DNA of 46,136 bases, the filler included, from Catajapyx aquilonaris (taxonomy: Eukaryota), in the NCBI GenBank assembly GCA_000934665.2. It is 2 parts of 2 records of this genome, joined end to end, with 100 filler letters (N's around TTAATTAATTAA, not from the genome) between each part and the next. Parts side by side here need not be neighbours in the genome. Positions count along the whole stretch, not along the records: positions 1 to 23,128 come from JYFJ02005792.1; 1 more part is not named here. One strand, 5' to 3'. The notes under the pieces were generated by a model. The model did not search any database, had not been told where the DNA came from, and saw only the letters and a list, made by a program, of their open reading frames with translations. Below are positions 2,650-27,121 of this stretch, piece by piece. The stretch's first letter is position 1; every line of letters begins with the position of its first letter. Both the position numbers and the translations under genes were made by a program.

Positions 2650-5019
2650 CTGACCTTTCAGTATGTAATGCACATCGCAAGGGTTGGGGGGCAAAATTCC
2701 CGCGCTCTATTTCCCCCCCCCCCCCACCGACCCCTTCGCAATAATGGCAAGCAGGACTTGGCCAGAAAAGGGTAAGGATTTAATCCCCGTCGTATTAAGG
2801 CTCAACCGGACTGAATTTTAAGCTGATGTAAATTAGAAAAGATTGGGCCGAAAACAAGGGTGGCAGTTGAGCGAATTAAGCCCGCTTCCTGAAAAAGCTA
2901 GGGTTGCAGTTAATTACAACCCAAGATGAACCTGACGGGAGGAAATTGGTAAACAACGTCCGGATTATATACCGCGTGTGTATACACAGGTTTTTTTGTG
3001 TAAAAAATGCGGCGAATTTCTGCGGACCTTGTTTACGCCGGTACATTATTTTTAGGACTTTCTTCTGGACTGCAGTGCAGACATTTTGGCCAAATAGGTG
3101 TGGTCATGCACTTTTACAGGGCGTGGCTTTTCCCTCGTTCTCCAGATATTGCAATTTGTTGATGAGGGTTAGGGGACAAATTCCTTGTAGCAGATGGTGA
3201 CCATGTCACATGTTTTCTGCATTGGAGGCACATGTTATTCTGACACAAATTGGTGCATTAATGCAACCAATTAGGATTCCCCGTACTCAGCTATAGGGAG
3301 AGAGCCGAATCTGCCTCAATTATGGACACGAGTATAGATAGGGTTAGGGTAATTAATTGCGATAACGAGGCAACTGGCAGCCAACCCCGTAACACACAGC
3401 ATAGTTTAAACTGGGAATTTGCGAGCGAGATGGGGAATTTGCGAGCGACCCCGAACATTCCGAGAAGACCCCCTTTTTTTAGTGTATGGACTTGGTCTCG
3501 CTTTGTAGTTTGTCGTGTAGGTTCCTCCCTTCCTTGATTGTTGGCCAAGTTTCTGAGATGGAGACGGATGGACACATCCAATTTGGCTGGACATCACATC
3601 CACGTGGATTTCCGCCAACTACACCGAAGCCATGGACGCGTTTCTGTCACACCCCATCTTCGAGTGACATCGTTGCAATAGCCGGCTCTCCCCCCACGAG
3701 ATATCAACGTGTCGATACCACAAGTAGATTTCTGTCGCCACTCTGCTGCACACTTTTAGAGTCCTCATCGGGGCAATGCCTTGTATATATATTTTTTTAT
3801 CTGAAGAAAAAGATGCCGATCGTAGCTGCAGCAGAAGGATTTCTAAGTTCATATTGTCAACCGAATGCCGAAGCGAAAGTTTGGTCAGAAATGAGCTGAC
3901 AGGTAATTTAGATAAATGGTGGGCTGTAAGAAGATGGAAGATGTTATAAATTTGACACGAGAGTGACGGCGTCTGAATTCTGGAAATAAATGCTTCAAGC
4001 TGCCTTTTTTGCCGCCTTCTTCTTCTTCTTCTTCTCACTGGCCCACAGTCGGAATAAATCGCGGTCGCCATTGTGGATCGGAGTTCCTCCCCGATTGAAG
4101 GCACAATTGGACCCTTTTCAATCGGAAGCGATAGGGATTTGACTATTGATCAGGGGACTGCCGACATGTCAACTCGTCATTCCCCCGAAAATGGCTGCCA
4201 AGTTGCATCATGGGACCTTCTGCTCGTCCATTGTTGGTCGGCACAATGATCTTTTGGGACGGAAATTTTGCCTTTCATGATGCGAAACAATTGAATTGGT
4301 TGCACTGTTTTAGGAGCTGGTGAATGCATTATATACGTGGGTTGCTTTCTGTGTTGCTTTAGGTTGGTCTGGAATAGTTCTTTTGCGTTGTTGCTCATGG
4401 AGTTTTAAATATGAAGTATCGACTGCATAATGTCATATAAATGATGCGTGCAAATATTACATTGTTATCATTTATTAAGGGAGTTAAACTACACCAATGG
4501 CACATCTCCTTTGAGTAAGTTTGGCTCAAATTCCAGCAGATTTCTCCACTTATTTTGCTCCAGTGAAAATCGAGCCTCAGGCGTTAGATGCGAGGTTGGG
4601 TCTAGAGATATCCAATAAGTGACTAGATGAAGTGAATATTACTACAAGGGAGAGATTCTAGCATAACAAGTAGGTAAAAGTCCACCACTCAATCGTTATT
4701 CTGCAGTTATGACGCAATTGCCTGTCTCGCTGCGGACGTACACCGACACCGCATGTCGACGACGTCTTCACGCACACCGGTGTCTCCCTGACAATGTGCG
4801 ATGCCACCCTATCGAGTTGAGGTAGGAGTGTCGCAACCGGGCCCTAACGAATCGAAATTTGAAGCATAACTCAGTTTAGGTGACGGAGTCAAGAGCATGT
4901 TCATTTGGGGAGTTATTAAATTTAGGGGCAGATAAGTGTCAGGGAGCATCTTCCCGGGATGATTATGCACTCAATCTGGCTGGAAGGGGTAATGAGAAGG
5001 GGAGTGTGGGTTGTAAAGC

Positions 5020-5652
5020 ATGGCGCTTCTCCTCTTCTCTTCTTCCTCTGACGGGCCCCGCCATCTGGCTTTCGAGAGACGGAGAAGGAGGGAGCGTGAC
5101 AACAATGCCAACAATGGCGGGGACCGGTCTCATCCGCTATCATTTCTCTCTTTAGGAAGATGGCGGTAGCTTGGGCAGAAAAATAGTAAGGAGATTGTGT
5201 CGGAAGCGACGTTGTCTCGGAGCCTGAAATCGCAGCCTCATTAAGATTCGCAGCTGGTTTCTGCGTTCCAGACTTGTAATGCGAGATGGCGGCCGCCTGT
5301 CGCCATCCATTATGGCGGTCCCTCCCTGCCTCCCTCGCTCCTTCTTCGGCGGTCCTCCCCCACATGCTCTTTGCCTGTAATCTGCTCGTCGCCATCAAGC
5401 CATTTCCCGAGGCATCTCCCCCACAATTCTGCTCACTTCTTGTACAACACCCGAGACGAGAATAGCACCTCATCATGGCGGACCTTTTGTCTCGGCACCA
5501 GCTGGGTTTATCCTCGGAACCCTATTGGATCACAGAGTGGATAAGTCCGGGTGTGTCTGACACTTAGCTAGATTCTGGCCATCCTCACTCTTGAAGTTGT
5601 CGATTGAGACGAGGGTTGAAAGAGTGGGCGTCAAAGAGGAGAAAAATGGCGG
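5020..5652. promoter_or_regulatory. Cluster of YY1/Pho-type ATGGCG/CGCCAT motifs
   Basis: Ten occurrences, near 5020, 5059, 5114, 5160, 5286, 5301, 5312, 5390, 5475 and 5646. Confidence 0.45.
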
Positions 5653-7896
5653 GTAGCACCGACATGCAGTGAAGGCTGGCGACATGTGCGTGCGACAGTT
5701 CAGAATGCATGTGGATGAAATTGTACGGGACATTTGGTCACGAGCGAGCTAACAAGCCGATAATGTGTGGTCTGTTTCATATATTTGATGGCCTGTCGTA
5801 ATAGCCTATAAGTGCAACTCTTTATATCCAGTTGTTGACAGGTGCCAGGTCCATTGCAGACAAGACGGGCAGGGTATACAGTATTGTTGATCTAAGAGTG
5901 AGGAGGTGACGAAATGATTTTTACTCACACGAGCTTGTCACCTGCTCGATATGATTTGACTGAAGAGGGGGATATATGCCCACACATATTTCATTCGAGG
6001 AAGTGCCTTCATAATAACAGGCACTTGTGGACCACCCTTTATGAGCGCTATGGGGAGCATGTCAGAGTAGGAGATGGCTACGGGCCAATTGTTTTGTTAG
6101 CTATTTATGAATCTGTGAGAGAGTCAGTCGTCAGGAAAGTGGATAATAAGTTATGTGAGAAGAGGCAAGTAGGAAATTATTTAGGGAGATGTCACTCTGG
6201 AAAGGTTTTATTCCTGAAATCGGACCGTATACCTGCCCCCAAGAGAATATTACTCTCTACTGAGGGGAACGGTAACATGACTGTTGCTATTACTCATAAG
6301 CTGTTGTTGGCTTCGCATGCACGCTTAATAACCTGCCCTGATGATTAAAAATATTTTGCTTCGACCGTCGATATTGCTTTCGCGGCAATATAGATGTTCC
6401 TTCAGATGGAGCACTTTACGCACTTTACGACCTGTAATACACAGGGGCTGTAATGCGCTAATATTAATTCTCATTACGGTACTGTTACGTCGAGTGAACA
6501 TTTTCACACTTGTATTTTTAAAACATCCTCACTCATGCTTTTAGCATACCAGAGTTGTGACTGGCGTTTCCTTTCACTGACCAGCTAAAGCCAACACCAT
6601 AAATAAATATGGTCATTTGGATAGTGCAAGGGAATGGATGGCATTTGGATGGGCTGGAGGGCAAGGAAAAGCAAACAAATGGCTGAGCCGTGTTATGGAT
6701 CTTGGCCAACTCAGGTGCGAGTAATAGAACTTCATGTGGTTCTCTGAGCCTTATACCGTAGGTGACGTCACATGGAGACAGACGCCTAAATTTAATCCTT
6801 TCTGTGTCCCGTCCAATTGGCAGGCTTCGAGGAACCGTGCCAGTTTCTTTGTCCCACATTGTGACGGGGCCAGTTCCAGGGAAGACTTATTATGTGTCTG
6901 ACGTGACGTCAGACTCTACTCTGACGTCACGTACCGTACGTTCCGGCATTTATTTCTCGCCTGATTTCGGTCTCCAAACGAAGGGGGTCAGACTGCTGCA
7001 GATTACGGGAAGTCGTATACCACGGGTTTGGCAACCAATTCCGGCAGGAGACGTAGAATTTCTGACAGTTATGCCTACTAACTCGATAAAAAAGCGTGTT
7101 ATGCTGATGAGTTTCGGTGTAGTGGGCATACCTTGCGCATATGAACTGTATTCACTGTCAATACTGATATGCCGGGTTTATTATTCGACTCTTTCCCTCT
7201 GTTTATGTAGTAGGATGACGTTTAAAAGCAGGGATATAATGAAATGACTGCTCCAATTAGCGCCATTACTGTCTGTAGATGAATAACACAGGGGAGCAAC
7301 TTCAACTGTCGCGTAATTTAAATGTGCGACTGTAATTATCGCACATTTAAATTGCTTATATATTATGCAGTACATAACTACGTAGATGCAATGCGCACAC
7401 AGAACCTGTCTGACGATTTTGGACCGGAGAAATTCGCATTTCTTTCAGTGGAAGTCTTGCCAAGGAATGCTACATGGCGAATGCCGAGTACACATATTGT
7501 CCAGACTTAATTATTTTTATTCTGTAATGCGAAACCACACCCAGTTGGAATACGCCTGGGTTGCATGAAACGCACATTAGTACCGCTGGAAGCTGCATAC
7601 TCTATTCAGCACAATGCTTTGTGTACCTGTATTTTCTGTGTATTGCTGGGTGATGTCTGGTAGAACGTTCTTTTTTTTAATCCTTCAGAATACTTCATGC
7701 TGTTTTTGTGTGCAGTTTTTCCTCGAATCATGGCCTGTTGAAATGTGGCTCTTTCCGGTACGGATACGCCCCTGCTGGACAGACAAGACATATTATGAAA
7801 ATGAAACTTTAGGAAGACGGTCCAGTGGACAGCAGATAAATTCGTATCCTGGTGGGAGTGGAATTTGTCGAAGTGAGCAATCCGCGACGGGAACCC

Positions 7897-8053
7897 TACC
7901 GCAATCCAATTATCGATCAGAGTGGTCATTGGGATCGACGTCCATTGGGGCCGAAACTTCTACCGGATCACTGCGAATCTACTCGCCACAAAAAAAAGAT
8001 CAAAAATTTGGTCCCATACCAATCCTTTCCGGTCCCTAATTGGATTGTGGCTA
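7897..8053. mobile_element. Possible small degenerate MITE
   Basis: CCGCAATCCAATTA (7899-7912) is the inverse of TAATTGGATTGTGG (8037-8050) with one mismatch. Weaker inverted similarity continues inward and TA dinucleotides flank it. Confidence 0.4.
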
Positions 8054-11000
8054 CAGACACAAGTGTCAGGAGTTAGACGACAACACTTTTTTTAGTGTGG
8101 GTGTGTTTCCACCCTGGCAACCCTGAGCTGACGTACGTGACGTCATACGTGCCAGATCTGTTTCCTTAGTTGGAAGAGGGGGAAAAAAAGGATTAAGCGA
8201 GGAGATAATCGTGTGGGCCATGAATTAGTGACCGAGGTCTAAAGGGCCCGCTGCCGGACTGGAGAATTAGTAGAGCTCAAAATCCCGCGGAGAATATTAA
8301 TTCTTCTGGACCGTTTTCCCATCGATCCTTCGCCATGTGGCTCCCTTTGCCTTGCAATCATTCCGCTCGTTGGATTTGCTAAGAGAGCAACTGATTTTCA
8401 TTTTAAATATTGTTGAATTTTTTTTTGGCCCTACTCAGGGCGGGAGTGAAATTTGGATGAAAAACGTGGGGCCGAAATTAAGCTCGGAGCAGCAGGCTGA
8501 ATACGAGTTAAAAATCTGTTCTGAATTTTAAATTTTTAAATTATTATATTCGCATTACTTTGGCTGGGGGGGTAATGTGAGCCATTATTTTATTACACCT
8601 GACCTATTCGCAGTATTTGCAACGTACACGTATGCGTATTCATGACTTGCAGAATTTTTACGAGCTTGTTTTCGCCCAAATAGCGGCCTTGAATTACTCG
8701 CTGCTACATGCCGTAGATTGTTGCAATATTTAACGACGGTGTTCTCCCAAGTAGTTTAATCGCTGGGAATGGCGCAAAACTCTTTTGCCCTGAGCCAAAC
8801 GCCTTTGAAGCAGGGAGCCCCTGACATGTTTCAGACTCTTTATCGCACACTTTTCCCCTCCTTTCCCCCTCCTGATTTATTCTGCGATCAGCCTGAACGA
8901 TATCTGAATTTCATTAACCTAGGCACTATCCTGAAAGGCCGAGCGATGTACACCAAGTGCAAAACTTGCGAAATAACGTGCTACAACCCTCCTCTGCGGC
9001 AGAATTTATTCCTGAACTATCGAGCCGCAAACTTGGCGGGGCCATGATTACCCCCCATCCCCACCCCCCTTTTTTTAAAAAAAAAACTGCATGCAATTTA
9101 TTTGCAAGCGACCTAGATCTAGGTGGTGTATTTATTGATAATCACATCACTTTCTGTGTATATAGCATCCTCTCTAGTTTTGCCAATCACTAGTGCGAAT
9201 TATGATTCATCAGCGGGCTCTTTTACGGTCGCGAGCTCGGTTGGGAGTCTGCGGGACGTAAATTTGCGGGTGGCCTTCCGCGGCCTCTTATGGAAAATAT
9301 TCGGCACAGTTATGGAGGTCGTTACTTTAGAGTCTATCACGTCGAGCGGATCATTCCCCGACCCGATTATGCCACACCTTTCGAAATCTGCTGCGTAGTT
9401 ATGGGGGTCCTTATAGCCTAGCGCACGTACCCAGCCCTACGGCTCTAATTAATTCTCAAGCTGGCTCCTAGGAAATTATGTCATTACGCTGTACTCAACT
9501 TTATGTGTATGAGCTTGCATATTGTTGTGCGGGGCAGATCGAATGCTGGGGACGATTAAAGCATTGACAGTGTTACGATGAAATATGGAGTCGTAATCAT
9601 CAGGAATCGATACAATTGGCTCGTTATGGCTGGTCGGTGGTGGCGATCGCGTTCGGATGTAGGGTCACTCATGGTTGCGGGGTCGTTGTGTGGTCAAAGT
9701 GTCTTGGATTAAAGGCAGCAAACATTTTAAACAAAATTGGCCTGATGTTTCTTATGGCGTTTGCATGGCAGGGGTGTCATCACGGCGTATGTGCCGCTGC
9801 CATTCTGGATCATAAGTCAGGGCTGATATCCGGAAATATCCTATTAGCGCCCATTTTTGTTGCACAAAGGGCAGCGCTGTACACTTGCAAACGACATCTA
9901 CATAATATGACACTTACGAGCTGTCAGGCAGGCACCATTACTGTGAAATATAACAGGGGGGGTTTACAGTACAGGACTTAGCGTCATGCTGTGTCACCGA
10001 TTTCTTTGTCGCAGAGCCGGACGCAATGTGACGCCATGTTTCGACCTTCGTAAAATTATTAATTCAGACTAAATTATTGCTTACTATGCATTTTTACGTG
10101 TGCAGAAAACGTTAGTTGACATTTTGCCTCCGGGAGACAATGGGGCTAAATGAAGGGGACACCTACTGCGTCCGAAATTGAATGTTTGCTGCCCTTGCGG
10201 ATAACCGCAGCAATTCTTCATGACACTGCGGGACTCGTGCCGTGTTTTGCAAAATATACAGACGAATAATGTTTTCCTGCAATTAAAAAAGTGAGGGGCG
10301 GCTGAGAAATATTTAGTTCAAGCAACTTGCTGTGTCATTGTGTCAGTTGTTTTCTTTCTGGAATGAGGAGGCACGATCTGGAACTGTTACTGCTTTTGCC
10401 TTCGTGCACTAGAACTTTTCAGGTCACCTACTTCATCCCCTGTTCCACTGACATTCCAGAAGGATGGGCCACTGTTTTATTTTAGAAAGGGGTTATTTGT
10501 GACTTTTTCCACTATTTCTCGCTGTCATTCCCAATAGACGAAAGTACACACTGTATATGAATTTTCTACACCCAAATTATGAGGGATTTGGGGGCAAATG
10601 TGGAATTACATTCGGGAATTGCAGTATGAAACTATACTGTAGATGTAATCAGATCCTCGAAAGAGAGCTCAGTCCAGGCTCTGACTACCGTGAGAAAGTG
10701 ATTAATTTTAGGAACATTTTCCTGGTGGGAAAAGAGTCTCTTGCGTGGAAATGTCATAGGATTAAAAGCCACGGAATCAGGTCAAATATCCTGTCGACTT
10801 GGACCAGTGATGTTCAGTTTTCTGCACTGGCCAGACTGCTTCGCCCTCAAATATTCACTCCAAGTACATTTCTGACATAACATTATAATATGGAAGTATG
10901 CGTAATTATATACTTTGGTCGAGAGTTTGAATGCATTTTTGTACACGTGGAATAAAAGCGAATCCACTCTCCATATATTACACATCTGAATAGTCAATTG

Positions 11001-14000
11001 ACTACTGTACATTTCCTACCTGTATACTGTACTTTTGAATTACAATGCATGATGTAGACTTTCAAATGCAGAGTTTGGGACTTTGGAATTGGTATAATAC
11101 CACATGGTGTGTGTGCGTAATGGATGCATCGTGAACCCACATCGATTTCTGTTGGTTTATTTAGCAAATGCCATTCTCCAGCTTTTTAAATACTTAATAT
11201 TCTGCCATTCGTGAAGGTTGTTATTGCTTATTTTTAGTCATGAAAATTTTTATACTTGCTTGCATATTGTATGAAGGTAAATATTATGATAGTTGCGAGG
11301 ACATGAACGTGTTTTATTGTATATGTATAGGTTTTTGCATTTTTATCCACTTTCGTACATATTTAGGTAAATATTGCTACATGCCTTCTCGCCACAGTCG
11401 CCACCGATTCAAACCAGACGGAAATACTGCATGGCACTGTACAGGGCTAATTTTTAAATGACCTCGCCCCTGACTCCGAGAATGGCCTGCATGAAAGTTT
11501 TATCAGCCAGTGACAGAGGAGCACGCGAAGTGCGTGGATCAACTCTCCCTGGTGAAATAATGCATTTCTCTTAAACTGTAACCTAACGGCATGAAGCCTA
11601 ACACCGCATGTAAATTCACTTCACTTGTTTTGACTAGTACAGTATTTTTGAAAAATAACTGCATGTTGTGACTGGCGATTTTGGCACTAAACGTGTTGTT
11701 GCCACCACCCTTCCACATAACAGCGCTGCCACCGTCAATGCTTCTAGCTACACATGGGCGCAAAAGTCGACACATTGTCCCGCCACTGCATTGTCAACCA
11801 GACTCCCAAGCAGAGGCTGTTTATCGCCCGCTGTATATGAGCAGACATACCTTCCCGACACATGCACATATGGCGGCTACATAACCGTCCATCCATGATG
11901 CATGTCCACCGCCCACAAGTGACGTTTATGGACGCAGTCTGTCAACGGGGGGCAAGCATGGCCTCCGAATCAACGCACCGCGTCCATGTTGCAAATACAG
12001 GGTGGCTGTAATGACTATCAAGTGATCAGGACGTCAGAACTTTATTTTAGATTGTAGATATGATATTGCTTATTTAAAATGGGTTGTCTCCGTGCTCCAG
12101 TGGGTTTTCTCGGGGTCCGCTCACTCCATATTGCGGATAAACGCAAATTCTATTCGATTGTGCTGCCATCTAGTAAAGCCTGCGCAACTCTGCTTTCCTG
12201 ACCGATGAACAAATCGGATAACCAGCAAGCTGGCAAGCTTCTCTCTGAGCACCCCTGTAATTTTGCCGCATATGTGTGTGTCAACTCAGCCTTTGGTTTG
12301 CTTCTCCCCACCACCCCATCCGCCTCCCCCTGTCATCCCCACTTCCACCCCCCAGTACGCCAACATATACACACCCAGTGGGCAGGGCTAACAGTAGATG
12401 GTATAGTTTCCGATCGGATAGGCCAGCTTCCCATCCATTTCCTGTTGATCGGTGTTAGGGGACGGTTAAACGCGCTTGCCAGCAATTGGAGCGAAAAGCT
12501 GGGTTCGGTTGCAACTCGCTTCCAGGACATGGCTTGCCGTTTAGGCGCGGTCACTTTGGGTCACTGAGCACCTGCTTCTAATGTAGTCTACCATATTTCA
12601 AAATCGTGTTTCCGATGCATTTGGAACCGCGCCTAAACAGTCCGTTACGCGGTCGCTTCGCTTGGCGAGTTATACTCGATCCAAAGTGGCCCCCTGAACA
12701 TATCCTATATGCTACTACTGTATTTATGCCAATGACGACGCGTTAATGGGGAGGAAATGGACAAAAAATTGCACTTCTCTCGTCATCTAGGCATTTTAGA
12801 ATGATGCAGGGGACCGTCGATCGGGAGGGTGTTGACAAATAATGTCGTCTGATGACATAACAATTATGTAAAGCATCGTTAGAATGTTGGATATGTAACG
12901 GGCGTTGTGACATTTTTAAAATACGAGCTACCGTTGATAGTCCATGTTGATTAGTACACTTTACGTGCCCAATCAAATGGTTTTCTTGCCTAGTGAAAAG
13001 AGTGCTGGTGCAATTTCGATGTACGATATATTTCTTTCAGAGGAAGTTATTTGAAACGTCCAATAATTGCTTATCGATTAAAGTATTGAAGCGCAAAAAA
13101 AGTGACTGATGATGTCCGCTGTGTAACTTGAGCATTAGCACTATCTGCATTTTGCCAGACTTTAAACATGGAGGGTGTTTTAAAATCGGAAATGAAGCCC
13201 CTATATTCCACATCGCTGTGAATATCGGCGCCCATTTCCGATGTACGTTTGGCCGGCGAAGTTACCAAAAGACTATAGATTCAAAGTATGCCGAAAGTGC
13301 ATTTGCAGAGGGAGGAAGATGGGTCCATTTAGCAATTAGGCGAAACCCGAGAAAGGAAAGGAGGAGCTTTTAACCTGGAAGATTTCGAACACTCCCAGGG
13401 TTAACCATGCCTTGATTTTTTTCCCCCTACACCCCCCTTCCTCTAAAGAGGTGATTGATTGGACTGGTATCGATCAGGAAGCAAGATCTGCGCATCGGTT
13501 CTCCAAATAAAACCGAAATTATTACCTTAAACCCCCTGGCATATATTTCTTCCCTCAAATTTTGACAACTCTCATAACCCCTGTTTGTAAACTAAGGAAC
13601 AGGTGTACCCGCAAGCTTTCAGACTAATTGCACAGCAACTTCACAGTCGTAGCCAACCAGCATCACTTTCCATGCTCTCTCATATATCTCCTGGATACGA
13701 ATTTATGAAATAAGATTCTGGCGAGAAGTTGAGCAAACTTGCTTCACATGTATCGCGGGGGAAATTGCTCGGAAGAAAAGACGAATGCCGCTCAAGGGAG
13801 TGCTCCCATTTAATTGGATCTGATCTTTATGATGAGTAATTCCGCCTGTCGCCGCCAGGGTTTTATGCGGCGCTCTAAATAGATTGTACGGGGTGACGTC
13901 AGGTGTGTGCCTCGCCCCAATTTATATCGAGGAGGGAATTTCAAATTGATTTAGTCGTAAATATTTTAGGGTGCCTCGCAATTGTAGGATATTTGGCGAG

Positions 14001-15015
14001 AAGGGGACCTTTGGCCACAACAATGGGCCCAGGTTCAGATGGTGGGCAGGCGTGGGCCTTTTCATGTCCGGCGCCATTACTCAGGTTGCCTGCCTCTCCT
14101 CCTTGTTCCTAAGCCCATAAAACACCGCCTAATGGCCAACCCAACGCTGGAAAAGGGGAGAACAAAAAAATTTGGGGGAGGAAAAAAGAAGCACTGGTCT
14201 GGGATTTTACACTTGCCCCATCACGCTTTATCATTCAGGTCGAGCTCTTTTGGGAAGCGCTGCTGCTCCGGATATTACCCGGACATTATTGCTACCTTTT
14301 TCCAACCCCCCTACCCTCTTCTTATTCCACCACCGCCACTTTTTGGGGATGGTAAACCCTCTCTTACAAGAACCGCTTGAAAAATGGTGAATTTGCAGCT
14401 AACAAGCCTGAAAAATGGTGCAGCGTCTAATGAAATGAGGTTAACAAGCTTGGGTCGCGCAAGGTGATAATACGCTGAATAAATGAAGCCTCTTCCTGGC
14501 CCTGAGGGTCATCATTGCCACCATTAGTTCCTGGGCATTTGCTTCTTTATCTAGAAACTTGCTATCACGCCTCGTTTTGCAGAACATTCTTGTAAATGAG
14601 TCAGAACTGTTTTTAAAAAATCAGAAATTTTCAAAATATTGCAATTTTGATAAATCGATATTTAGCGATTATTCGATTTGATATTCGTACCAAATGGACA
14701 TATGCGACAACCTTCTATGACGCATGACAAACTAGAGCTCCGGAAAATTGAGGACATTTGAAGGTTGTTTCGTTTCACATAAGCGCATAACTTTCCTTCG
14801 CGTTCCCCTGTGAGTAGGAAGCTTTGAGAATTCGCTCGGATGATTGATATGCACTGGGACTTGCGCATCTTCCCATTCATATATATATGCACCCACCGTA
14901 TTTTGAGGGATTGAGCCATATAGTGCCTAGCAAGTAGTGTTCAGGTGACAAATGAAACCGCAACTCTCTTTCCATCTCCGCTTTATTGACGTCGGAAGAA
15001 GAAAAGGAAGATAGA

Positions 15016-15045
15016 GAAGAAGAAGAAGAAGAAGAAGAAGAAGAA
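15016..15045. repeat. (GAA)n microsatellite
   Basis: About 10 GAA units within a purine-rich tract. Confidence 0.9.
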
Positions 15046-16356
15046 AAAAAAATGAGAGAGGCGGTGGAGAGGGGGGTTTGAGCTGGGGGGAAATGGGTTT
15101 TCCGAATGAGGCGATTGGTTCTTAATCCTAGGGGATTATGGGAGCGTGGGAGAAAATGCAACCCGGGACATGTGCGTCCTGCAGGATTTTAAGTGCGCTG
15201 GTTTTTGCCGTTTTTTCGGGAGCGGTGGGTTGGTTTCATTTGTCATGTTCTACTTTGCGATTTTGCTGCGGGAAATTTTGGCATTGCTTTTTTTTAAATA
15301 TTAGAGAGTGTTATTAACACAGGTGGCTAGATTCAGTATATCTCACATAAGTTAGGTGTCGTCAGTAGTTTGTGATTTGTGTAGTGTTTTTCCTTCTAGG
15401 GACAGAGCGTAACCACGACACCAAACGATGTCAACCGGGGAGGTAAAAAGCAGTTCTTGTTTAGGTATGCTTCCATATGTGGTCCCCGGTTCGAAACTCG
15501 GGAACCATCACTTTTTAGCACCTCCTTTTACATTTTTTTGTGTTGTGCTGTAATTTTTTTTATTACATAAGCATACTCTCTATCTATCTCCATTTCTCTC
15601 TATCCCTGGCCACACGGATGAGTGAACCGACCGAGAGCTTCTCCTCGTGTAAAAGGAGTGCTCCCATTTTTTTGTTTGTGCTTTTCCATCACCAAGTGGT
15701 ACATAGTTCACTACCACCTTTGGTATGTAGAACCCACCGCCAAAGTTGGACCACCCAACAATGAATTCCGTGTCGCAGACTAAGGTTTGATGACAATGTG
15801 GGGCTCCCAATGGGCATCGCGCCTATCATTCTACTACACCCACCCCAAACCTGTATACCTATAAACCACCCCCCTCACTATGCCCACTCTATTTTGTCCG
15901 TCTTGGCATAATATTCCGATGGGATTGGCGGACAAAACAGCTGGGGTTGTTTGCATGGTTGCATAAGTGCAGGAGGACCACGCACTCTATCTGACATCGA
16001 CCTGACACACATTCACACTCATCTCCACTTACAAGATGGGCTCCTTCTTTGTTTTGTTTTGGTGCATCGGTCGTTTTCTACACCCTATGTAAAACCATAG
16101 TGTACGTTGTATTTAGGCGAATTACAGTGCGGTGTGAGATATGACCAATAATAATTGCAGTACTTGCATTTTAATAGCGTGCAGCCTCCTGGCGTTTGAC
16201 ATAAGGCAGATTGACTGTGGTTATGTCAAATGATAGACAGGTGGGCAAAATTGTAACTAAAGTGGACACTAGTAACTCCTTCCGTAATCTAGTAGCATAT
16301 TTGTCTAACCCGTGACGCAAACAGCACATGACGTTGATTCCTTTATCTTCTTGCAG

Positions 16357-19300
16357 GTCTGCGCAAAGTGTACCCGTACTACTTCACCTTCACAACGTTC
16401 ACCAAAGGTCGCTGGGTCGGGGAACGCATCCTGGAGGTGTTCGCCCGAGAGTTTCGAGCCCATCCCGCCGAGGAATATGTGAGTTGGCACAGAAGAACAG
16501 AAACATAACCAATTATACCCTCCGTTTTTATTGTGTGTGTGTCTTGCCGGACGAACCGCGACCAATTTCCGTCCTTTTTTTTGTGCGTTCAGGAGAGATG
16601 CATCAAGGCGGGTACCCTGACCGTCAACTACGAGAAAGTGGACGTGGACTACCACCTCAAGCACAACGATTTGCTGGCCAACGTGGTGCACAGGTTAGCA
16701 CGAGTCACGTCGACAAGGTGTCCCCCCTCACATGTAGAAATTTACGTATCACATATACGAGATCGCGGGTTGTTTGTATTTTTTTATTTATTTTTTGGTC
16801 AAATTCCAACAGTTTTTGCAGTCACGTGCTCGTGGCATGATACATATAGGCAACAATTTTCAATATAGAATTTGACAAGTTTGCATGTGACAATGCCATT
16901 TTGGATTTCTCAGCTGCACTTTTCAGAAAGAGCTCGTTTCCTGTGTCACAAACTGCCTCCTATAGGTTCTACCTTGAACTCACCTCTGTTGGAATAGTTA
17001 TTTTTCTATAGTCCTATAGCCGCCTTCCCACATGGCTTCCGGCGGACTCCGGCTTTTTTACTCTAGTTATTTGTTTCTTTCTCCTCACAGAATTGTTTTC
17101 GTTACTGTAATTTTGGTGACACTTGCTACATGTGCAGGGACTGGCCGCTTGGAGACGTGCGGATCATCCCATGGTTTTTTTAGGGGACGAAAGGAAAGGT
17201 CATTTTGGAACATGACCTCCGGCTCCACGAGGTGGTCTGGCCATTTGCCACATTTAAGGGGATACAAAAGCATATCAAAAAAAACGCGCTATCTACCGCG
17301 ATATAGAGTGCTCTTTGCCGCTAGTTGCGGTGTACCCCAGTTGTGGCAAAGACCCAAACCATCCAGGAGACCCTTCCTGTTCCCCCCTAATCGTTTGGTT
17401 TTTGGGAGCGAGTTTAGCTGGAGAGCTGGAGATGCAAGCTGAACGGGACCCGAACCCAAAATCCAAAAAAAAAAAGACAAATAAAGGGATTTTAAAAAAT
17501 GGCGCGAAAAGCGAACAGCGAAAAGGGCCAGCTGGACTCTATGCTGTCTTGTTGCAGGCATGAAGTTCCCGTAACCGCAGACCCCATTGCAATTATCCAC
17601 TTGGATGAGGACTTAGTGGTCGTTAACAAACCCGCCTCCATTCCTGTAAGTCGAACTGGAACGCGAGACGACCCCGAGACAAAGGAAACACTTTGCGCCA
17701 TCAAGTCGAGACCGTTGGATGACCGTTATTTAACCGCCTATTTTGAGCGGGAAATATTTGATTTTAAAAAAGTGTCCTGGATGACCCGACTTTTTGGGCG
17801 CGGAGTTCAAATCTTGGGATGTCTCACCTATTCTTGTCTCCTCTCACTGGCTTTCAAGTAGCAGAGTCTCATTGTGTACTCTCCCCCCCAGACCCCGAAC
17901 CCCCTCACTTATTTAACACTACCTATCTCAAAGCAACATTTCTGTCTCTCTTTCTCTCTCTTTTTCTCTCTCTGTCTCTGTGCCTTCTCTCTGGCTTGGT
18001 CACGTTGCTCGTCTCTGGACATTCTCCATCGTTCATCTCGTACCATCCTCATTGTTGTCACTTCGTTTTTTTTATATATATCCTCCTTTTGGGAAGCAGC
18101 CTCTTGTTTTCATCACCACTTTAGGCCAGAAGTAATTGTGCTGCAGGTTTTCAAGCTGTCACAGCATGTGCAGCCAAGTGAGTTAAATCAATTGCTGGGA
18201 TGGTGAGTTACAACAGACATTTGCGTGCGAGGCTGTAATTTTGCTGAATAGCCATCTAACTCCAGCCGGTTGCGCCTTATTTGCATACAGGATGAGTAAG
18301 ATGGCTGATCTGCGTTTACAAAGCGAACAATTGCGACGAAAGACACCGAGTGATTATCACCATCACTGCGAGAAACAGGAAATAACACTTAATGTGGATC
18401 TGTGTTTTTATCTCGCCCAATGAGGAATATTCGGCTGAATTGTAAACGCGTTGAGATATATGGTCCTGCTTGTAGTTACTGTGACGTTCCCATGTGAGTT
18501 AGGATCGCGGCAGTGTTTCTAAGGGGCCACAGAGTGAAATAGGGACTCGAGGCACGTTCTAGCCAATAAAAAGATGGCAGAGAAAAAGTAGCGTGGGGGT
18601 AATTTGTATCCTGAAGGGAAATTGTGAGCGATGAAAGTGTAACCAGGCTTCAGGAGTAATTAGTTAGGTGAGATGAAGATTTCCCAGGAGCCCTGGAGAT
18701 TGAGGCGAATTGAATCATATCTGGCCAATAAGGAGGGTGCTCGTCGATCGCGCATCAAGGTGGCCTCAGGCCGATCCATAAAGAGCCAGCCTGCAATTTT
18801 ACTTTATGTTTATAAGCAATTTAGCCTCCTTTTTAAGGCCACTTCTAGGACGAAATTCCATACTCTTTTGAATCCAAATTACTTCCCTTTTGATTCTGCC
18901 GCCCTGAATCAAGTTTTGAATCACGCTATGGTCAGCTTGTTTTTTAAGAAATAAAGGAAAAGTACCTGCTCCCTATTTTCATTTTGTGACGTAACGTTCA
19001 TTTGAATCGTGGGATGAAAACAAGTCATAAGACTGCTTCTCTAACCATTCCCTATACTACCCCCAAAATAATCAAATTATCCAGGGAAAGAACCCCCAAA
19101 AAAGATCTTTTTTTACATAATCGAGTAGTTAAAGGCTGAATCCCTGGAGATAAACAAAAGACCGGGCCTGAATTTTGTTTTTAAACCTTTCTCGAGCGAG
19201 CAAAAGAGAAAAGAAACATTTTTTTGTAACCAAAGCCCATGGAGGATTCGGGGCCGACGAAAAGCACAGCTGGAGCGTCCTTTTTGCCAAAAATAATAAT

Positions 19301-21951
19301 AACACAGTGCAGAACCTAGCAAAATGGGTGAATAGGCCAAAAAAAAGAAGTTCGGAATAAAAAAGCGCCTGGTTGTTGCATTTTTGCAGGCACGAAACGC
19401 CCGTCTTAGCCAAGCCCATCGAGATCATTCATTTAGACGAGGACTTGGTAGTGCTCGACAAGCCCTGCTCCCTGCCGGTGAGTCCTTACTCAGGCTCACT
19501 CCTCACGCACTCACTCACTCACGCATTGTTGCTGACCCCACACACCCAAACCAACCCACACATGTGATCCATGTGTGTGCTGCTCACTATTTACTTTTTG
19601 GTGCAATGCACTATTTTTAGAGCCCTGCACTGGGTCCGAAGGGTTTAGGATAGAGTAGAAAAGTGTCTGGGTGATTCGTAGTTGTGTGTGACTTGTCTTG
19701 TTGCATATTTCTGAATCACCCGGTGCCAGCCAGAAGTCGCACGGGCCATTTGCGCTGGTTTGTCACACACTTTTTTGGGACGTTTTTTTTCTTCCGATGC
19801 GTGGTGTGTACCCGGGTGTGTCGCGATGCTTGCGTTGCGTTGTCAGATTTTTCAGTTTCCTGGAGTTTATTTTGGCAAGGGTTAGAAACAACAAAGCGAT
19901 CCTTTTTCCTTCACCGTCCCGTCACACACACATATCATATACATAGCCTGGGAATCAACCGCCTAAATATTTTCATCCTCCCTGTAACATTTTTTCTTCT
20001 TTTCTCTATCTTCATTTTCTGGCCTTTTCTTTCGGGGGATTTTGTGTTTTATAAGGCGTAGGTACAAAACAATAACATTTTGGTTGAAGAACTAACTAAT
20101 ACGCAATGAGAGCAATAGGCAGTAGTGTATAATGTATGTCCCCGGGAGCAGTTTTTAACCGCCTGCTACCTGTGCATGCAACAGGTGCACCCGTGCGGAA
20201 GATACAGACACAACACGGTGGTCTTCATCCTAGCTAAGGAGTACAACCTGAAAAACCTGCGTACCATTCACCGACTGGACCGACTGACCAGCGGTCTCCT
20301 GTTGTTCGGAAGGCATCCGAAGAAGGCCAGGGAGATGGAACAGCAGATTCGACACAGACAGGTGCAGAAGGAGTATGTGTGTCGCGTCGAAGGACACTTC
20401 CCGGGGTGAGTATGGGAGGAATTTCTTGGCAAGTCTGGATGTTGGGAGAGGTCCGGGGGCACACATTGGGATGAGATAGGAGGCCATTCGGCGGAATTGC
20501 ACCGCCTCCTGGTGGGAGTAGGAACCGGCCTCTGGGGAGAGAGACCCCCGCAGGCTGTGTCTATTGTGGGGGAGTAGTAAGCTTTCAGAAGTTGTTTTCA
20601 TACTATTCAGGAGGTAGGGCGGTTCTAGGCATATGGGGCTTTGTTGTCATACGGCATAGACAGTGAATCCCTGGCGTGTGCAGTAGGACCTGGGGGACAA
20701 TGCGAGGCTGCAGAATACACATGTTCGTACAAAGTGCGCTGAATGCTGCGTTTCGAAAATCATTTTTGCCTGCGGTGCGCAGTATCGGCGTCGGAACGTC
20801 GTTGCTGGGGGTAATTTAGAGGTGCCTGGTAATTAGGTACAGGCAAGTATTATAGGGCATTGAGCAGCTGCTCTTGACGTCATTATAGGGCAGAGAGAGA
20901 ATGCGAATTTTCCGCCGTTTTGTAGCGGAATTTCTCACGTACACCGTATGCAAAAAAAAAAAAGTTGGCAATGATGGTCTGGCCACAACTGACATACAAT
21001 ATGTACAGAAACTTATCAGCTCATATTGTGCCCAGACTTTCACCTACGTCCTACGCACTCATGTGAAAAGACAGTGTGTAAAATCTATTAGGGTAGAAGC
21101 ATAGACCTTAGAGCTCTAAGGTCTATGGGTAGAAGGTTCTGCTTTTAGCCGGAAATATCTTCGTTTCGCTCTGAAGTTATCCATCTATATGGTCTTAATA
21201 GCCATAGTTTCATTGGCTCTTTCCCACTAAAACCTAAATCTTATAAGCTCGTCCATCAACGTTATATCTTACCGTTCAAATTGGAACTAAATCCTCCAAG
21301 GAGGTGCTGTTTGTTCTACCCGTGGACCAATGTTACACGCTGATTGCATTCTTGTATAGAACACATGAAAAGATACAAAAATCTCAATTCAATTAACTCG
21401 ATGCATTCGTCGGTTATGTAAACAGAATGTTTGAATTTGCATCTATAGAGTTCGCCTACGCTTTCAGGGGTGTGATAGAGTGCGGAGAACCGATTGAGGT
21501 GGTCAGCTACAAGATCGGCGTGTGCAAGGTGTCCTCGAAGGGTAAGGAGTGTCGCACTACCTTCCAGCGACTCTCCGGCAACGGACGGACGTCAGTGGTC
21601 CTCTGCAAGCCCCACACTGGTCGGATGCATCAAATCCGTGTGCACCTACAGTACCTAGGTACCAAAAATACCACCGTCCTTTCTTTTTTCCTAAGCTAAC
21701 CTGGGGTCCTATTGGTTCAGGTTACCCTGTGGTGAACGATCCGCTTTACAACCACGTGGTGTTCGGCCCGGACAAGGGCAAAGGGGGCCGAATTGGAAAG
21801 AGTGACGAAGACCTAATCCGGGACCTGATCAGTATCCACAATGCGGAAAATTGGCTGGGGATGGACGGAGATGCGGAGCTGTCTATGTTCAAGCCGGAAC
21901 CAACGGGACCTGTTGGAATCGCCTCCGCTGCTGATGGACCCAAAGATCAAG
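16357..21951 (+). CDS. RPUSD2: RluA-family RNA pseudouridine synthase (RPUSD2 / RluA-1/2-like), partial multi-exon gene
   Basis: GT-AG exons at 16357-16478, 16593-16693, [17558-17645 or 19390-19477], 20185-20405, 21468-21658 and 21721-21951 splice in consistent phase. They give GLRKVYPYYFTFTTFTKGRW...VVVNKPASIPVHPCGRY...IHRLDRLTSG (catalytic Asp at 20278-20280)...KEYVCRV...[24 protein letters not shown]. The start exon was not identified and the 3' exons are cut off by the gap at 23129. Confidence 0.95.
17558..17645 (+). CDS. RPUSD2: RPUSD2 mutually exclusive exon A (88 nt)
   Basis: ttgcAG acceptor and GTAAGT donor, phase 2 to 0. Encodes (R)HEVPVTADPIAIIHLDEDLVVVNKPASIP. Confidence 0.9.
19390..19477 (+). 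CDS. RPUSD2: RPUSD2 mutually exclusive exon B (88 nt)
   Basis: tttttgcAG acceptor and GTGAGT donor, same length and phase as exon A. Encodes (R)HETPVLAKPIEIIHLDEDLVVLDKPCSLP. Confidence 0.9.
21092..21135. mobile_element. 28-bp palindromic TIR remnant with 8-bp TSD (P-superfamily-like footprint)
   Basis: GGTAGAAG-[CATAGACCTTAGAGCTCTAAGGTCTATG]-GGTAGAAG. Confidence 0.75.
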
Positions 21952-23128
21952 GTTAGTTCTGCCAAAAAAAAAATATGTATTTGTATGGCGCTAAAAATGG
22001 GGAAATATCGAATGACGCTGCGATTTTGTTTAATGTGTTCCTTGCAAATCTTGATCGCATAATTGCAGCTGTCCTAAGGAGGATTAGCAGCGAAGTTAAT
22101 GTAACTGTCAGGAACACATTGTGGAGGGGGCTTGCCTCTAAAATGTTTGCCCTGTCGCGTAATCCTTATTCGGAAGTCGCAACCCTGCTCCCGGATGTTC
22201 ATATTTCCAAGGACGCCTGCTAAATTCAATTCCAGTCTTCCAGGAGAGGCAGCAATGCTGTGTAATCCGGGATGTTATCCTTGAAGGCGAGCAATGTGGG
22301 AGCCAGTGTAGGTTGAGGTCATCTAATCGCAAGGATGAGTGAATTTTGGATGAATTGTCACATGTTCATGGTCATTTCTCCAGGATAGTGCAGTGGATTA
22401 AACTGAAGAAACGAGCATCATTCAAGTGTCTTATCACAGAGCTCATCGCATTAGCGTAGCTTTTAGAGTGGGTAGCGGATTTTTCAGGCATGGGGTAGCC
22501 TCATTAATTGCGACTTGTATCACTTGACTGGAAGCTTCTGGGTTGAAACCGCATTGGAGCGGCATTACAGCTTCCGCTAATTAGGTCTAAATAGAGGGGG
22601 CGACAAAATGAATGAAACATGTAGAATGAAAAGCTGAAGTTGTTAGGAAGGGAGTAGGAATTGTTGGGCGCCTGTTTACAAGTCGTGGCCTTTTCACGCG
22701 ACTATGCCCAATTAACGCGTGAGTAAATGTGGGAGCAATTGGGAAATGTTTGTATGGAGGTGTTGTGCATCAGGTATACGTCACCTGTCGATCTCGGTAG
22801 TGATTTCAGCCAGCGTGACGGACGGTGACATCGGGCTCGAAAACAACGAAACGAGCTTTAGCTCCCATTATGAACACCAGAAGGAGAATTTATGGGCATA
22901 TATGTCCTTACAAATGACTCAGGTTGTATTTTTGATGACATCCATTACGCATATTTGTCATATTTTGGATTGGTACAACCGATATTGTCTTTGGGGACCG
23001 TGCGTGACAATAAGGTCATGGACGTTTTAAAATTTTTCGAAAATTAGCGTGACTTCGGCTTACGGTACGGATTATTCTAAACGTGTTGCTTTTAATTGGT
23101 ATTTTGTAATTTGATGATGAGGTCGATG

Positions 23129-23228
23129 NNNNNNNNNNNNNNNNNNNNNNNNNNNNNNNNNNNNNNNNNNNNTTAATTAATTAANNNNNNNNNNNNNNNN
23201 NNNNNNNNNNNNNNNNNNNNNNNNNNNN
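23129..23228. other. Artificial contig-joining spacer
   Basis: 44 N + TTAATTAATTAA (stop codons in all six frames) + 44 N, exactly 100 bp. Confidence 0.95.
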
Positions 23229-23293
23229 GAAAAAGACGAAAAAGACGAAAGAAAAGGGGGAGGGGGAAGAAAAAAAAATCGCAAATGGAAACG

Positions 23294-23396
23294 GGTCTCC
23301 GACGAGGCTCGAACCTACGAACCTATGACCCTTTGATCTTCTAAGACCGTGCTTTTATCTGTAAACAGCAGCGTTACCAACTGGGCCAGTAGGGCC
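23294..23396 (-). mobile_element. tRNA-derived SINE head / tRNA pseudogene
   Basis: A-box TGGCCCAGTTGG (23388-23377) and B-box GGTTCGAGCC (23315-23306), followed by a T-rich tract running into the gap. The acceptor stem pairs poorly, so it is not called a functional tRNA. Confidence 0.6.
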
Positions 23397-23665
23397 ACTC
23401 GACCTAGACTTGTTTATTACGTTCCAATTCGCCAATTATCCCCGTCGCCTTGGTTACGGGGCCACTTGTAATTGCTAATTACTCGACAATGCTTGAGTAG
23501 TGACGGTTGTCACTTTCACATATTCATACCTGCCCTACAATTGACCAGCCCTGTAATTTTGGGTCCGATCGGTGACATGTTGGTGCAGATCATTCCCTTG
23601 TTAGTCATAAAAACTTAAAGACATATGCTAATAAATCATCAAGTATTTTGGCTCTATCAATAATA

Positions 23666-24780
23666 CAGGGTTACCACAAAAAAGAAATAAACACTTTCAA
23701 CATTTCATAGAAACTGAAGTATTATTGATACACACAAAATACTTACATGGTTTATTAGCATATGTCTTAAGTTTTTATGACTAAGTTACTTTATAATGTT
23801 CTATCTGTGAGCTTTTTTGTCACATGACTGACATCAATGTGATAATGCAATTTATCTCAAACACATTGAAGAATGTCCTTGACAACACTCGTCCCAGCTG
23901 TTCCGAACTGTTATTTTCAATTGTTTTAGATCATTTACACTTACAGGAAGTGGATGAGCAAAACAATTGTCTTATTAGATATGTCCATATAAAGAAAAAT
24001 CACTACAACTTAGATTTGGACTTGTTGGTGGCCAACATGTCAGTGCCATGTTCTGGTCTGTTGAGGGGCCAAACTAACATCGAGGACAATTTCGATAAGA
24101 GGTAATTTTGAAACTACATGTGACAAGTGAGCTCCATATTGGTTGAAAATGAAGTTTTCACTGTCTTCTTGGAGTTGCGGCACAGCTGGATCCAAACCCT
24201 TGACATTGAATTATATTGTATTAATAATCGTCGTGTGACAAATGGTTCACACATGGTACATTAAATGTATGTCTTTCAGTTTTTATGACCAAGTTACAAA
24301 TTTTGTACAGTACCTTGGTCAGCATTTGATCATTTCTGCAACAGTGGTGCTAGCACCATTGTTGCAGAAATGATCAAATGCTGTTTTGGACTGTACGCCG
24401 AAGAATGATGTGCTCACCATCCATGGCTGCTGCAGTATGTGAGTGGTTGGTGTCCTCATACACACCGTAGCTAGTGAATGTGTTGCCAGACTACATAAAC
24501 CTGGAGTTACATAAAGCATAATCACCGCACTCCTTAATCGTCACTCTGATGTGCCATTTTTACCGGTTCATTTGGTTTTTGAGCTTTGGAAATGGTGCAA
24601 CTGGTCCAATTATGCCCAATTTCTAACATTTTTGTTCTGTTGACACAAGCAGAAATAAAAAATTCAGATTTCTGACAGGCAGTGTATAAGGCATTGAAAG
24701 TGTCTATTTCTATTATGGTAACCCTGTACTTTGGTTTCTATCAAACGTTGAAAGTGTATATTTCTTTTATAATAACCCTG
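23666..24780 (-). mobile_element. Degenerate Tc1/mariner DNA transposon
   Basis: TA-flanked imperfect TIRs of about 50 bp (CAGGGTTACC...CACTTTCAACATTTCATAGAAAC from 23666; inverse at 24734-24780). Decayed transposase C-terminus on the minus strand, about 24180-23790: PQLQEDSENFIFNQYGA (cf. FQQDGA), WPPTSPNLSCSDFSLYGHI (cf. WPPRSPDLTPCDFFLWG) and LHYHIDVSHVTK. Confidence 0.85.
24320..24383. repeat. 64-bp near-perfect palindrome
   Basis: CAGCATTTGATCATTTCTGCAACAGTGGTGCT|AGCACCATTGTTGCAGAAATGATCAAATGCTG, with one G-T mismatch. Confidence 0.95.
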
Positions 24781-27121
24781 TATATTCCTCGGTATATTCA
24801 CAATTGTGTCAGGTATGCGACAGACTTCAATATATTCACAGTGAACAAGTTCGAGTCTCAAAACATTAAACATAGTCTCTTTTTTTTGCCTTGATTAGAA
24901 AACATCTGTCACACCTGAAAAAATACAAAGAAAATTCCATCCCTCAAGGCTCGTTGCAGCTCAGTTTAACTGTACTACAGAAGTATGTAAGTGTCCCAAT
25001 ACAATTGCCTGAATAACTCTTTAATAAAAATTAGAACTTGTGATTTCATCATCAAAAAATTATGAGCAGCAGAGTATGTGGGTCTATTTATAACAAAGCA
25101 TTGTCCTTGGCCGTGATGTGTTGTTTCCATTGTGTTATGGCTAATTTTAAGTACTCTCAATATTCACACATGAACACAAACTTACAAGAAAGCCTACTGG
25201 TAACAAGATGGAAATACTAAGCAGCTTCGCCATTAGTGTGCATAAATGACCTGCACTTTATCAGAGATGCTATTCAATTCTTGTATCACAACGTATTTTG
25301 TCATTGTATAGAAAAACCCTTCTAGGCTGACACTATCACAATAACTGTTGCAGCCTTACAATCTGTGGGCTGTATGAAGGGGACAATGCAAATTCCCTAC
25401 AATGCAGTGCTGCCCAATTAAGAAGAGTTATCACAACCAGTCGGGGGGTTGTCAAAGTAATATCTATGGCTGCACAGGCCAACTAAGTAGTTGTTCAATG
25501 TTCCAGGAATCTAGCGCAGTGTGCCTTGAAATGTATCTGCAATATATTGAAGGTCAGAGTAGGGTGAGAAGTTTTGGATTGTTTATTCCTGCATCAATCA
25601 TGACAAGTGACTGTATTCCTGAGTGTTCCGCCCAGTCCTTTGCTTCTTGTTAAAACCATTCCCAAGGTCAACACTGCACAACTTCTCTCTCTTGAATTGA
25701 TGACTTAGGCAGTGCAGCATCTTGTAATTTTGGTAACAAACTATTTTCTTGTGGTGAGGGCAAGATGTTGCACATATTAGAAGTTGGCAAGTTGCAATGA
25801 TCGTGGATAACTTTAACATTCTGGTAACCAATGCATGTTATCATAACTTCACAAGAAAGCTTCTGGCTGAATTATCCTAGTCAAAGTTCACTGCTAGAAG
25901 TGACTTAGCAAGCAAAGTATTCTGCTCCACAACAATCCATCTGCATGTAGCAGTGCTGTGGATTTCTAGATGGATGTGGAAGTATTGCTTGGGATCATGT
26001 CTGTGGAATGCCTTACTAGCAGTTGTGAACAAGAGACAGAGGATCCTGCAGGTTGGAATGCCAAGGCAGGTCCTGCAGATGCTTATTATTGCTTACAAAT
26101 TTTTTAAACATTTATATCATTGTATACAATATATGATTTGGCAATATCATCATGAAGCCAGTTTACATGGTACCAAGTTCAAGGTGCTATCACTGGGACC
26201 TCTGGGGAAAGCTCACCATCCTAGCCATGTATTATATGAATGTTAAAAGTGATCCAATTATGAGTGCTCCTTGGTCAGCATGTGCTCTGTTAATTAATCT
26301 TTGAATTGCTTTGGTTTGGTTATGGAGAAATATTTAGACAGGGTTATTTTAATGCTCCTTCTAATCATCATGTAACTAATGTGCAAATTGATAGCCTACA
26401 TCTTTTCAAGCAGGTCATGTTATGCTTTCAAAGCAGCTCATGAATCACCAGTAGATACAGACAAGACAGACACCTGCCTCTGCTTGGCCATATTCAATGG
26501 TATACAAGGGCTGCTCTTACATCATAAATCAATGAAAGTCTGTCTTATCATTATTAGATAAAATGTGGCAGCTCGATGATGATGAAGTCACCATATGCTC
26601 AGCAGAGCAGAAAACCCCCGACTTGAAAACTCCAAAGTTGTGTCCCCCTTTGCCAACCAATGATTCATCCTATCCCTGGAAGTCGACTGCCCCTGCTTCT
26701 GCCCCACCTGACCTCTCGGCAAAGCCCAGACCATTGTTATCATTTCCCAATAACACAATGTTTTGAAACCTAGTACTTTGATATCGAGTTGAGATCGCTG
26801 ACCTTGAAAACACCCAATGTTTCTAATTTTCATGCCAATTCTAAATTTATTGTTCTGTCTTTATCAAACCCCGGGTCCATCATGGTGCATATATCCTGCA
26901 ATCCACAACAGTGATCCCATTACTAACCATTGTGTTCCAAGTCCATAGTGGTTGGTTATTTCTTGGCACTATGCTGATTAATAAATAGGCAATTGATTTT
27001 TAGGGTTCGTCAAAATAATTGCTGTCAGTAAAGCTGAACCAACCCACCCGCCAAGATGCCTTGACTGCCACACATACCTGCACCTGTTGCTGTCTGCAGT
27101 GGAGGTCCTTTGAGACCTCCA

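Follow-up and report, generated by a model that had tools for sequence, protein, structure and literature searches.

An ancient pair of alternative exons, probably mutually exclusive, in the RPUSD2-type pseudouridine synthase gene of Catajapyx aquilonaris

Tandemly duplicated exons of which one is chosen for each transcript are familiar from arthropods, the classical mutually exclusive clusters being those of Dscam1, Mhc and 14-3-3 zeta. Here we describe a pair of homologous exons, A and B, in a gene for an RPUSD2-type pseudouridine synthase, located in a stretch of 46,136 nucleotides (nt), filler included, from the genome of Catajapyx aquilonaris (GenBank assembly GCA_000934665.2); this whole stretch is referred to below as the window. 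The pair resembles the classical clusters in that its exons are tandemly duplicated, equal in length and phase, long conserved and, as we propose, used one per messenger RNA (mRNA), but it comprises only two copies and no docking/selector pairing was detected for it. Its closest described counterparts are the X1/X2 isoform pairs of RPUSD2 or RPUSD2-like proteins from Penaeus vannamei, Periplaneta americana, Tenebrio molitor and Armigeres subalbatus, which exchange the same 29-residue segment, with the same signatures and the same flanking exons; those are annotated isoforms, whereas the pair in the window is known from genomic sequence. We consider it likely that this one RPUSD2-type gene carries an ancient mutually exclusive exon pair and yields two enzyme forms that would differ in function. 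The pair is real, ancient (pancrustacean) and already present in the public RefSeq isoform annotation of many relatives (shrimps, cockroaches, beetles, mosquitoes); it is a well-conserved example of a well-known kind, useful rather than surprising. Our literature search found no paper on this exon pair; the supplementary tables of the catalogues of mutually exclusive exons in Drosophila and other insects, which lay outside its coverage, might list related cases.

The same enzyme family is represented in Drosophila by RluA-1 and RluA-2; passages of PMC7718762 describe these as paralogues with RPUSD2 as their closest human homologue, the former specific to sensory neurons and the latter ubiquitous, and both with an S4-like region, of which the gene described here has a weak, sub-threshold match, and, like that gene, with a synthase domain containing motifs I-III. 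The same passages mention the S4 similarity as 'data not shown' and state that the enzymatic activity of the fly proteins was not yet proven biochemically. Unlike the window, with its one gene and two exons, the flies have two genes, both with the A type of exon. More distant relatives are the bacterial enzymes RluA, RluC and RluD, whose catalytic core is homologous: the A isoform of a shrimp matches the PDB chains of RluC, RluA and RluD with expectation (E) values of about 1e-20. In contrast to the pair described here, these enzymes, as well as RluB and RluF, are single-isoform proteins, and a change of specificity brought about in the same way by an exon swap is suggested here by analogy with them.

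The twin exons and their gene

The exons of the gene that were found in the window are arranged as follows.

16357 to 21951, plus strand: RPUSD2-type gene, seven exons, all with AG/GT boundaries
16357 to 16478, plus strand: constitutive exon (..LRKVYPYYFTFTTFTKGRW..AEEY), starting with two bases of a split codon; acceptor cttcttgcag, donor gtgagt
16593 to 16693, plus strand: constitutive exon (ERCIKAGTLTVNYEKV..ANVVH and the AG of an arginine codon), with a weak S4-like match inside
17558 to 17645, plus strand: alternative exon A, HEVPVTADPIAIIHLDEDLVVVNKPASIP, 88 nt; acceptor ...tgttgcag, donor gtaagt
17646 to 19389, plus strand: A-B intron, 1,744 nt, with U2-type GT..AG ends
19390 to 19477, plus strand: alternative exon B, HETPVLAKPIEIIHLDEDLVVLDKPCSLP, 88 nt; acceptor ...tttttgcag, donor gtgagt
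20185 to 20405, plus strand: constitutive exon with VHPCGRYRHN.. and the catalytic motif II, HRLDRLTSG; PF00849 E = 1.1e-15, 58.7 bits
21468 to 21658, plus strand: constitutive exon with motif III, GRMHQIRVH; PF00849 E = 3.7e-08
21721 to 21951, plus strand: last exon found (..PKDQ), with a GTTAGT donor at its end

A preliminary description of the window had proposed two homologous 88-nt exons of identical phase with good splice sites, both of them open, and had predicted that inclusion of both or of neither would break the reading frame. These claims hold. AG and GT flank the boundaries of both exons, A shares 57/88 nucleotides and 21/29 amino acid residues with B, and each is open and has strong splice sites. 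Each exon opens with the third base of an arginine codon (AG followed by G) begun in the exon that ends at 16693, and both close in phase 0 ahead of the exon that starts at 20185. If both are included, a stop codon is reached 47 codons past A; if neither is, it is reached 16 codons into the next exon. Among the codons for the residues common to A and B, 14 of 21 differ synonymously, which argues for an old duplication under purifying selection and against a recent duplicate or mere coincidence. When A and B were aligned with 30-nt flanks, nothing but the splice-site consensus was alike beyond the exons, and tblastn searches with full-length relatives as queries (E <= 1e-3) revealed A and B as the only copies in the window.

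The preliminary description had also placed the exons in a gene of the RluA family, spanning motif I and the stretch right after an S4-like region, and our analysis agrees, the S4-like match itself being weak. The Pfam family PF00849 (PseudoU_synth_2, RNA pseudouridylate synthase; cut-off 26.8 bits) is significant in exons 20185-20405 and 21468-21658. The motif with the catalytic aspartate (motif II, HRLD) and motif III (R..HQIRVH) are both present in the window exons, the same motifs of a relative align to the RluC/RluA chains, and the K-P pair of motif I (..[ND]KP..) is kept in both exon versions. The exon at 16357-16478 shows 92.5% identity to relatives' loci (tblastn) and also matches named RPUSD2 proteins. 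A comparison of the constitutive core (288 aligned columns, alternative exon excluded, 36 named relatives) gave 77-85% identity for 33 of 34 arthropod proteins named RPUSD2, with lower values for two incomplete or fused models (Blattella 72.6%, Nezara 62.7%). Identity to the 36 named relatives does not exceed 85%, no closer relative turned up, and the exact exon peptides of the window occur in no protein match retrieved. In a single-gene tree of 36 rows (hand-picked named proteins and the window; the Nezara model P0123, fused or poor, was excluded) the window sequence falls inside the arthropod clade; it adjoins the winged insects with a support of 89 in the Shimodaira-Hasegawa-like approximate likelihood ratio test (SH-aLRT) and no starred clade, a placement on which we do not rely. 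Judged by these comparisons, the gene is an orthologue of the arthropod RPUSD2 (fly RluA-type) pseudouridine synthases, with predicted activity.

Two exon types among relatives, and the fly genes

To find relatives, we used as queries 40-residue pieces of the window that surround either exon; 409 proteins matched the A query (the best 120 of the 409 are listed) and 111, all listed, matched the B query. Proteins P0003-P0289 include 157 that hold an exon of type A, 126 that hold one of type B and six that hold both; their distinct exon peptides number 45 for A and 47 for B, with zero intermediates, a split whose sharpness is partly a product of the method, as candidates were gathered through shared five-residue words, which favours well-conserved exons. 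All 45 A peptides have V3, V22, A26 and I28, and most have T6 (39/45) and N23 (43/45). All 47 B peptides have T3, L6, L22 and D23, with C26 in 44/47 and L28 in 46/47. In 44/45 A peptides position 8 is acidic or Q, whereas B peptides mostly have K, H, N or R there. Exon A of the window has all six A-type diagnostic residues and exon B all six B-type ones. The contrast of N and D in motif I, to which the preliminary description had drawn attention, is present in the window but fails as a conserved discriminator, since decapod A exons read VVVDKPASIP.

To judge from these sequences, the residues fixed within each exon type have been retained from a time before the split of insects, springtails, decapods and copepods. 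The earlier suggestion that the pair might be an ancient arthropod feature was borne out: a sharp line divides type A from type B, both are conserved in insects, springtails, decapods and copepod-like contigs, and when the exon peptides were searched across relatives both types were present, and neither was absent, in insects, springtails and decapods. The occurrence of both types in these three groups, together with the order of an A-like exon and B in copepod-like contigs, implies that the duplication predates the divergence of these pancrustacean groups. Because the type-specific residues have been fixed since before the pancrustacean split, we infer that the two forms are functionally distinct.

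It is improbable, in our estimate, that both exons are used but encode enzymatically equivalent proteins, the duplication serving regulation through differing splicing signals, tissue tuning or unproductive forms with both exons or neither. The early stops of the latter forms would indeed let the cluster lower productive output, and full-length relatives of both isoforms match PF00849 with near-equal scores (115.4 and 113.0 bits). Motif I is, moreover, regarded as structural, not catalytic. Its conserved residues are called non-catalytic in a passage of PMC7718762. Against this equivalence, the alternatives V/T3, T/L6, V/L22, A/C26 and I/L28 and the acidic versus basic position 8 are held per type across distant lineages, which points to selection on two protein sequences and not on RNA signals alone. 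Two functionally distinct enzyme forms thus remain the reading we prefer.

The Drosophila proteins examined fall into two lineages, one of 527-605 residues (P0095, P0290 and cluster members) and one of 721-847 residues in full-length models (P0292, P0469 and others), with one protein of D. willistoni in each (P0095 and P0469, respectively), the longest contigs listed for the two being equal in length. The lengths, and the names of Glossina and Carabus proteins, suggest which of the two corresponds to RluA-1. All Drosophila sequences examined have an A-type exon with 6/6 diagnostic residues, and in the single-gene tree both lineages group with other flies. We therefore rejected the idea that fly RluA-1 and RluA-2 correspond to A and B; the gene was duplicated in flies in an event distinct from the duplication of the exon. 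Among the sequences examined, which come from incomplete match lists, none from Brachycera or Hymenoptera showed a B-type exon; this is a hint, not a proof, that B may have been lost in these groups.

A profile-free search of 1.84 billion representatives with a fly protein as query listed 150 proteins, 148 of them new. Ten of these 148 fit A at 5-6 of the 6 diagnostic sites and three fit B at 4 sites; many of the remainder read V[VI][DN]KP[ASP]S[IL]P. Seven of 20 representative clusters looked up carried names: two nematodes, two mites, and for the rest Drosophila, with a third nematode entry in the Trichuris cluster. The nematodes Romanomermis and Trichuris have a single annotated version, ..DKPCSLP, which is B-like at 4/6 diagnostic sites, and the mites Tetranychus (VLDKPPSLP) and Galendromus (VLDKPPSIP) fit B at 2-3/6 sites. 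A fish protein reads VVDKPASIP and is more A-like, as are many more distant homologues. On these 29 residues, B is at most a candidate for the older ecdysozoan form.

Alternative use of the exons in relatives and the possible origin of exclusivity

Public isoforms indicate that both exons are used in relatives. In all of the 12 species pairs compared, two isoforms of equal length differ at 10-15 positions, all within the 29-residue exon; these pairs come from Penaeus vannamei, Palaemon carinicauda, Macrobrachium rosenbergii, Procambarus clarkii, Periplaneta americana, Zootermopsis nevadensis, Cryptotermes secundus, Armigeres subalbatus, Ochlerotatus camptorhynchus, Tenebrio molitor, Rhynchophorus ferrugineus and Anopheles coluzzii. 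Seven public gene models (P0003-P0009), including those of Popillia, Molorchus, Dendroctonus, Spodoptera littoralis, Papilio machaon and Orchesella, read through both exons in tandem, with A ahead of B. They prove the tandem arrangement in beetles, in moths and butterflies and in a springtail. As proteins these models, which hold invented linker residues between A and B, are recurrent annotation errors caused by the exon pair.

Metagenome contigs scanned for an alignment to exon B yielded 26 loci. In five of them (L001, L010, L015, L016 and L024) the exons e1-e2-B-e4-e5-e6 are contiguous, without A, which identifies spliced transcripts of the B form. Nine others (L007, L011, L013, L017-L021 and L023) have an A-like exon upstream of B; there A and B keep their AG/GT sites and their 88 nt, apart from one A exon of 91 nt. 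Contigs of 2-4 kilobases (kb) also encode full-length proteins that have A alone or B alone, e.g. P0081, P0087, P0172 and P0195. Two contigs show details of processing. The end of L018 (2496-2593) consists of exon B followed directly by the initial 11 bases of the exon after it, with the 2.25-kb stretch from the A-like exon to B still in place, and looks like a partly spliced transcript from which the downstream intron was removed first. L024, otherwise a spliced B form, has an insertion of 30 bases (273-302) that separates exon B from the exon after it and includes an in-frame stop, possibly a retained mini-intron or the product of an alternative donor.

Several points weigh against a pair in general use that makes two forms, in addition to the preference of the candidate search for well-conserved exons mentioned above. 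The public isoforms are for the most part RefSeq (XP_) models generated automatically, and the match lists are incomplete, the B query having missed P0004 and P0006, two moth/butterfly proteins that hold a B exon. At L022 no A exon lies between e2 and B. In copepod-like loci exon A is much more diverged than B (e.g. HEVPVRMSRVQVVFVDRDIAVVNKPASVP): in L013, L017, L018, L019-L021 and L023 its splice sites and frame are kept and, of its sequence, only ..VVVNKP[AP]SVP (VVVDKPASLP in L011), which suggests relaxed or changed selection on A in that copepod-like lineage. All eight of the Lepeophtheirus cluster members examined are of type B or lack the region, and exon A may be little used in some lineages. 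For C. aquilonaris itself, use of both exons is deduced from conservation.

The gene model in the window is, furthermore, incomplete at both ends. Parts belonging to the missing ends were sought in window positions 1-16356 and 21952-46136 with tblastn and motif scans. No exon upstream of 16357 was found in the window, and the conserved N-terminal exon of relatives (..KRPGF..ETSYY.ENG) was not found on its plus strand; nor did the relatives' conserved C-terminal, Cys-containing domain (..CYECKVRYRDPK..YLHAWKY.GPGW..) find a match on that strand. If the donor after exon 21721-21951 is unused, a stop codon follows one codon on. Two runs of 44 N (23129-23172 and 23185-23228) begin about 1.2 kb past the last exon found, and the missing C-terminal exons could sit in or beyond the N runs at 23129-23228.

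That C. aquilonaris uses a single exon, the other being an undecayed relic of the old duplication, is nevertheless very improbable. In its favour, the A exon of copepod-like loci is strongly diverged, the named copepod isoforms examined are B only, no B type was seen for the flies or Hymenoptera examined, and copy loss or disuse seems to occur in some lineages; but both exons of the window are open, have strong splice sites and keep all six type residues despite the synonymous changes in 14/21 codons, and a relic would not keep type residues and splice sites.

As to how the proposed exclusive use of A and B could arise, no special device may be needed, since the forms with both exons and with neither are out of frame; as an exon of 88 nt is not divisible by three, the reading frame together with decay could suffice for exclusivity. 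Ordinary GT donors and an A-B intron of 1,744 nt make spliceosome incompatibility or steric hindrance unlikely. This intron contains just one small CT-rich repeat and no Rfam match; CT-rich short repeats lie inside introns at 17939-17973 and 19495-19525. Docking/selector RNA pairing was found neither in the window nor in the loci compared, which belongs with the adverse points above. The inverted repeats of 16694-20184 amount to 20 pairs of at most 27 nt, mostly A/T- or CT-rich, none of which stood out, and a blastn search of masked introns for blocks shared between the window and seven loci gave only low-complexity matches to the window. A 31-nt block in the intron upstream of the A-like exon is shared by L017 (291-321) and L019 (3474-3504), 30/31 positions being identical in loci that are otherwise diverged; it was dropped as a candidate pairing element, its best predicted partners lying at different places in the two loci.

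In the wider surroundings, there is a purine microsatellite of the type GAA/GAAGAA at 15000-15050, upstream of the gene, and Rfam gave no non-coding RNA match in 12000-26000.

What the exchanged segment may do

The second half of the exon aligns to the N-terminal strands of RluC, RluA and RluD that end in ..NKP.., and in relatives the PF00849 domain begins 12 residues before the end of the exon. When the A isoform of Penaeus (P0266; 35-row alignment) was modelled with AlphaFold, the exon, which corresponds to residues 272-300, came out as a low-confidence stretch and, after it, strands at 281-286 and 290-295. We used only the secondary structure near the exon, as the model as a whole is poor, with a mean predicted local distance difference test score (pLDDT) of 49.7 and values of <50 at exon residues 272-279 and 297-300. 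Upstream of the exon, the S4 Pfam match is below threshold: E = 0.017 and 15.3 bits in window exon 16593-16693 and E = 0.059 in the Periplaneta protein, both under the 22.8-bit cut-off. The quality of the model and the sub-threshold S4 match both count among the points against the two-form reading.

In the bacterial enzymes RluB and RluF, the order of elements given in passages of PMC3919597 is S4 domain, flexible linker, beta 1 and forefinger loop, with S4 placement deciding which uridine is aligned; in RluB, according to the same source, the flexible linker joins the S4 domain to the core, and the S4 domain holds the RNA in place and thereby determines the uridine that faces the active site. 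We propose that each mRNA takes exon A or exon B, and that transcripts with both or neither would, through the shifted frame and early stop, give no enzyme and presumably be removed by nonsense-mediated decay. The two resulting enzymes would be alike except for 29 residues, which comprise the stretch from the S4-like region to the catalytic domain and the first two beta strands of the core (motif I, ..KP..) and which would stop immediately ahead of the segment from which, in bacterial relatives, the RNA-binding forefinger loop is made. By analogy, the likeliest difference between the forms would lie in the placement of the S4-like module and the forefinger base relative to the active site, and hence in the RNAs or uridines modified, or in the tissue of use.

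A bolder version of this proposal seems to us rather unlikely, if worth stating: one gene would hold two functionally different enzymes whose split is perhaps older than the arthropods, exon choice would reset the S4-like module or forefinger base and with it the RNA targets, and flies would have lost B and regained two enzymes by whole-gene duplication.

Among stand-alone pseudouridine synthases, those of the RPUSD2 type belong to the least understood, and little is known of the RNAs that they target in animals. Natural isoforms that differ only in the stretch from S4 to core and in the strands of motif I offer a ready-made experiment on substrate choice, and it will be interesting to compare the targets of A and B in a tractable species, as this would reveal the contribution of that segment. 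For annotation, the exon pair accounts for a mistake made repeatedly, in that both exons are read through in at least seven public models. The comparison with flies may illustrate how diversification by splicing and by gene duplication can substitute for each other; if the bolder version is true, the fly case would be one of gene duplication replacing mutually exclusive splicing.

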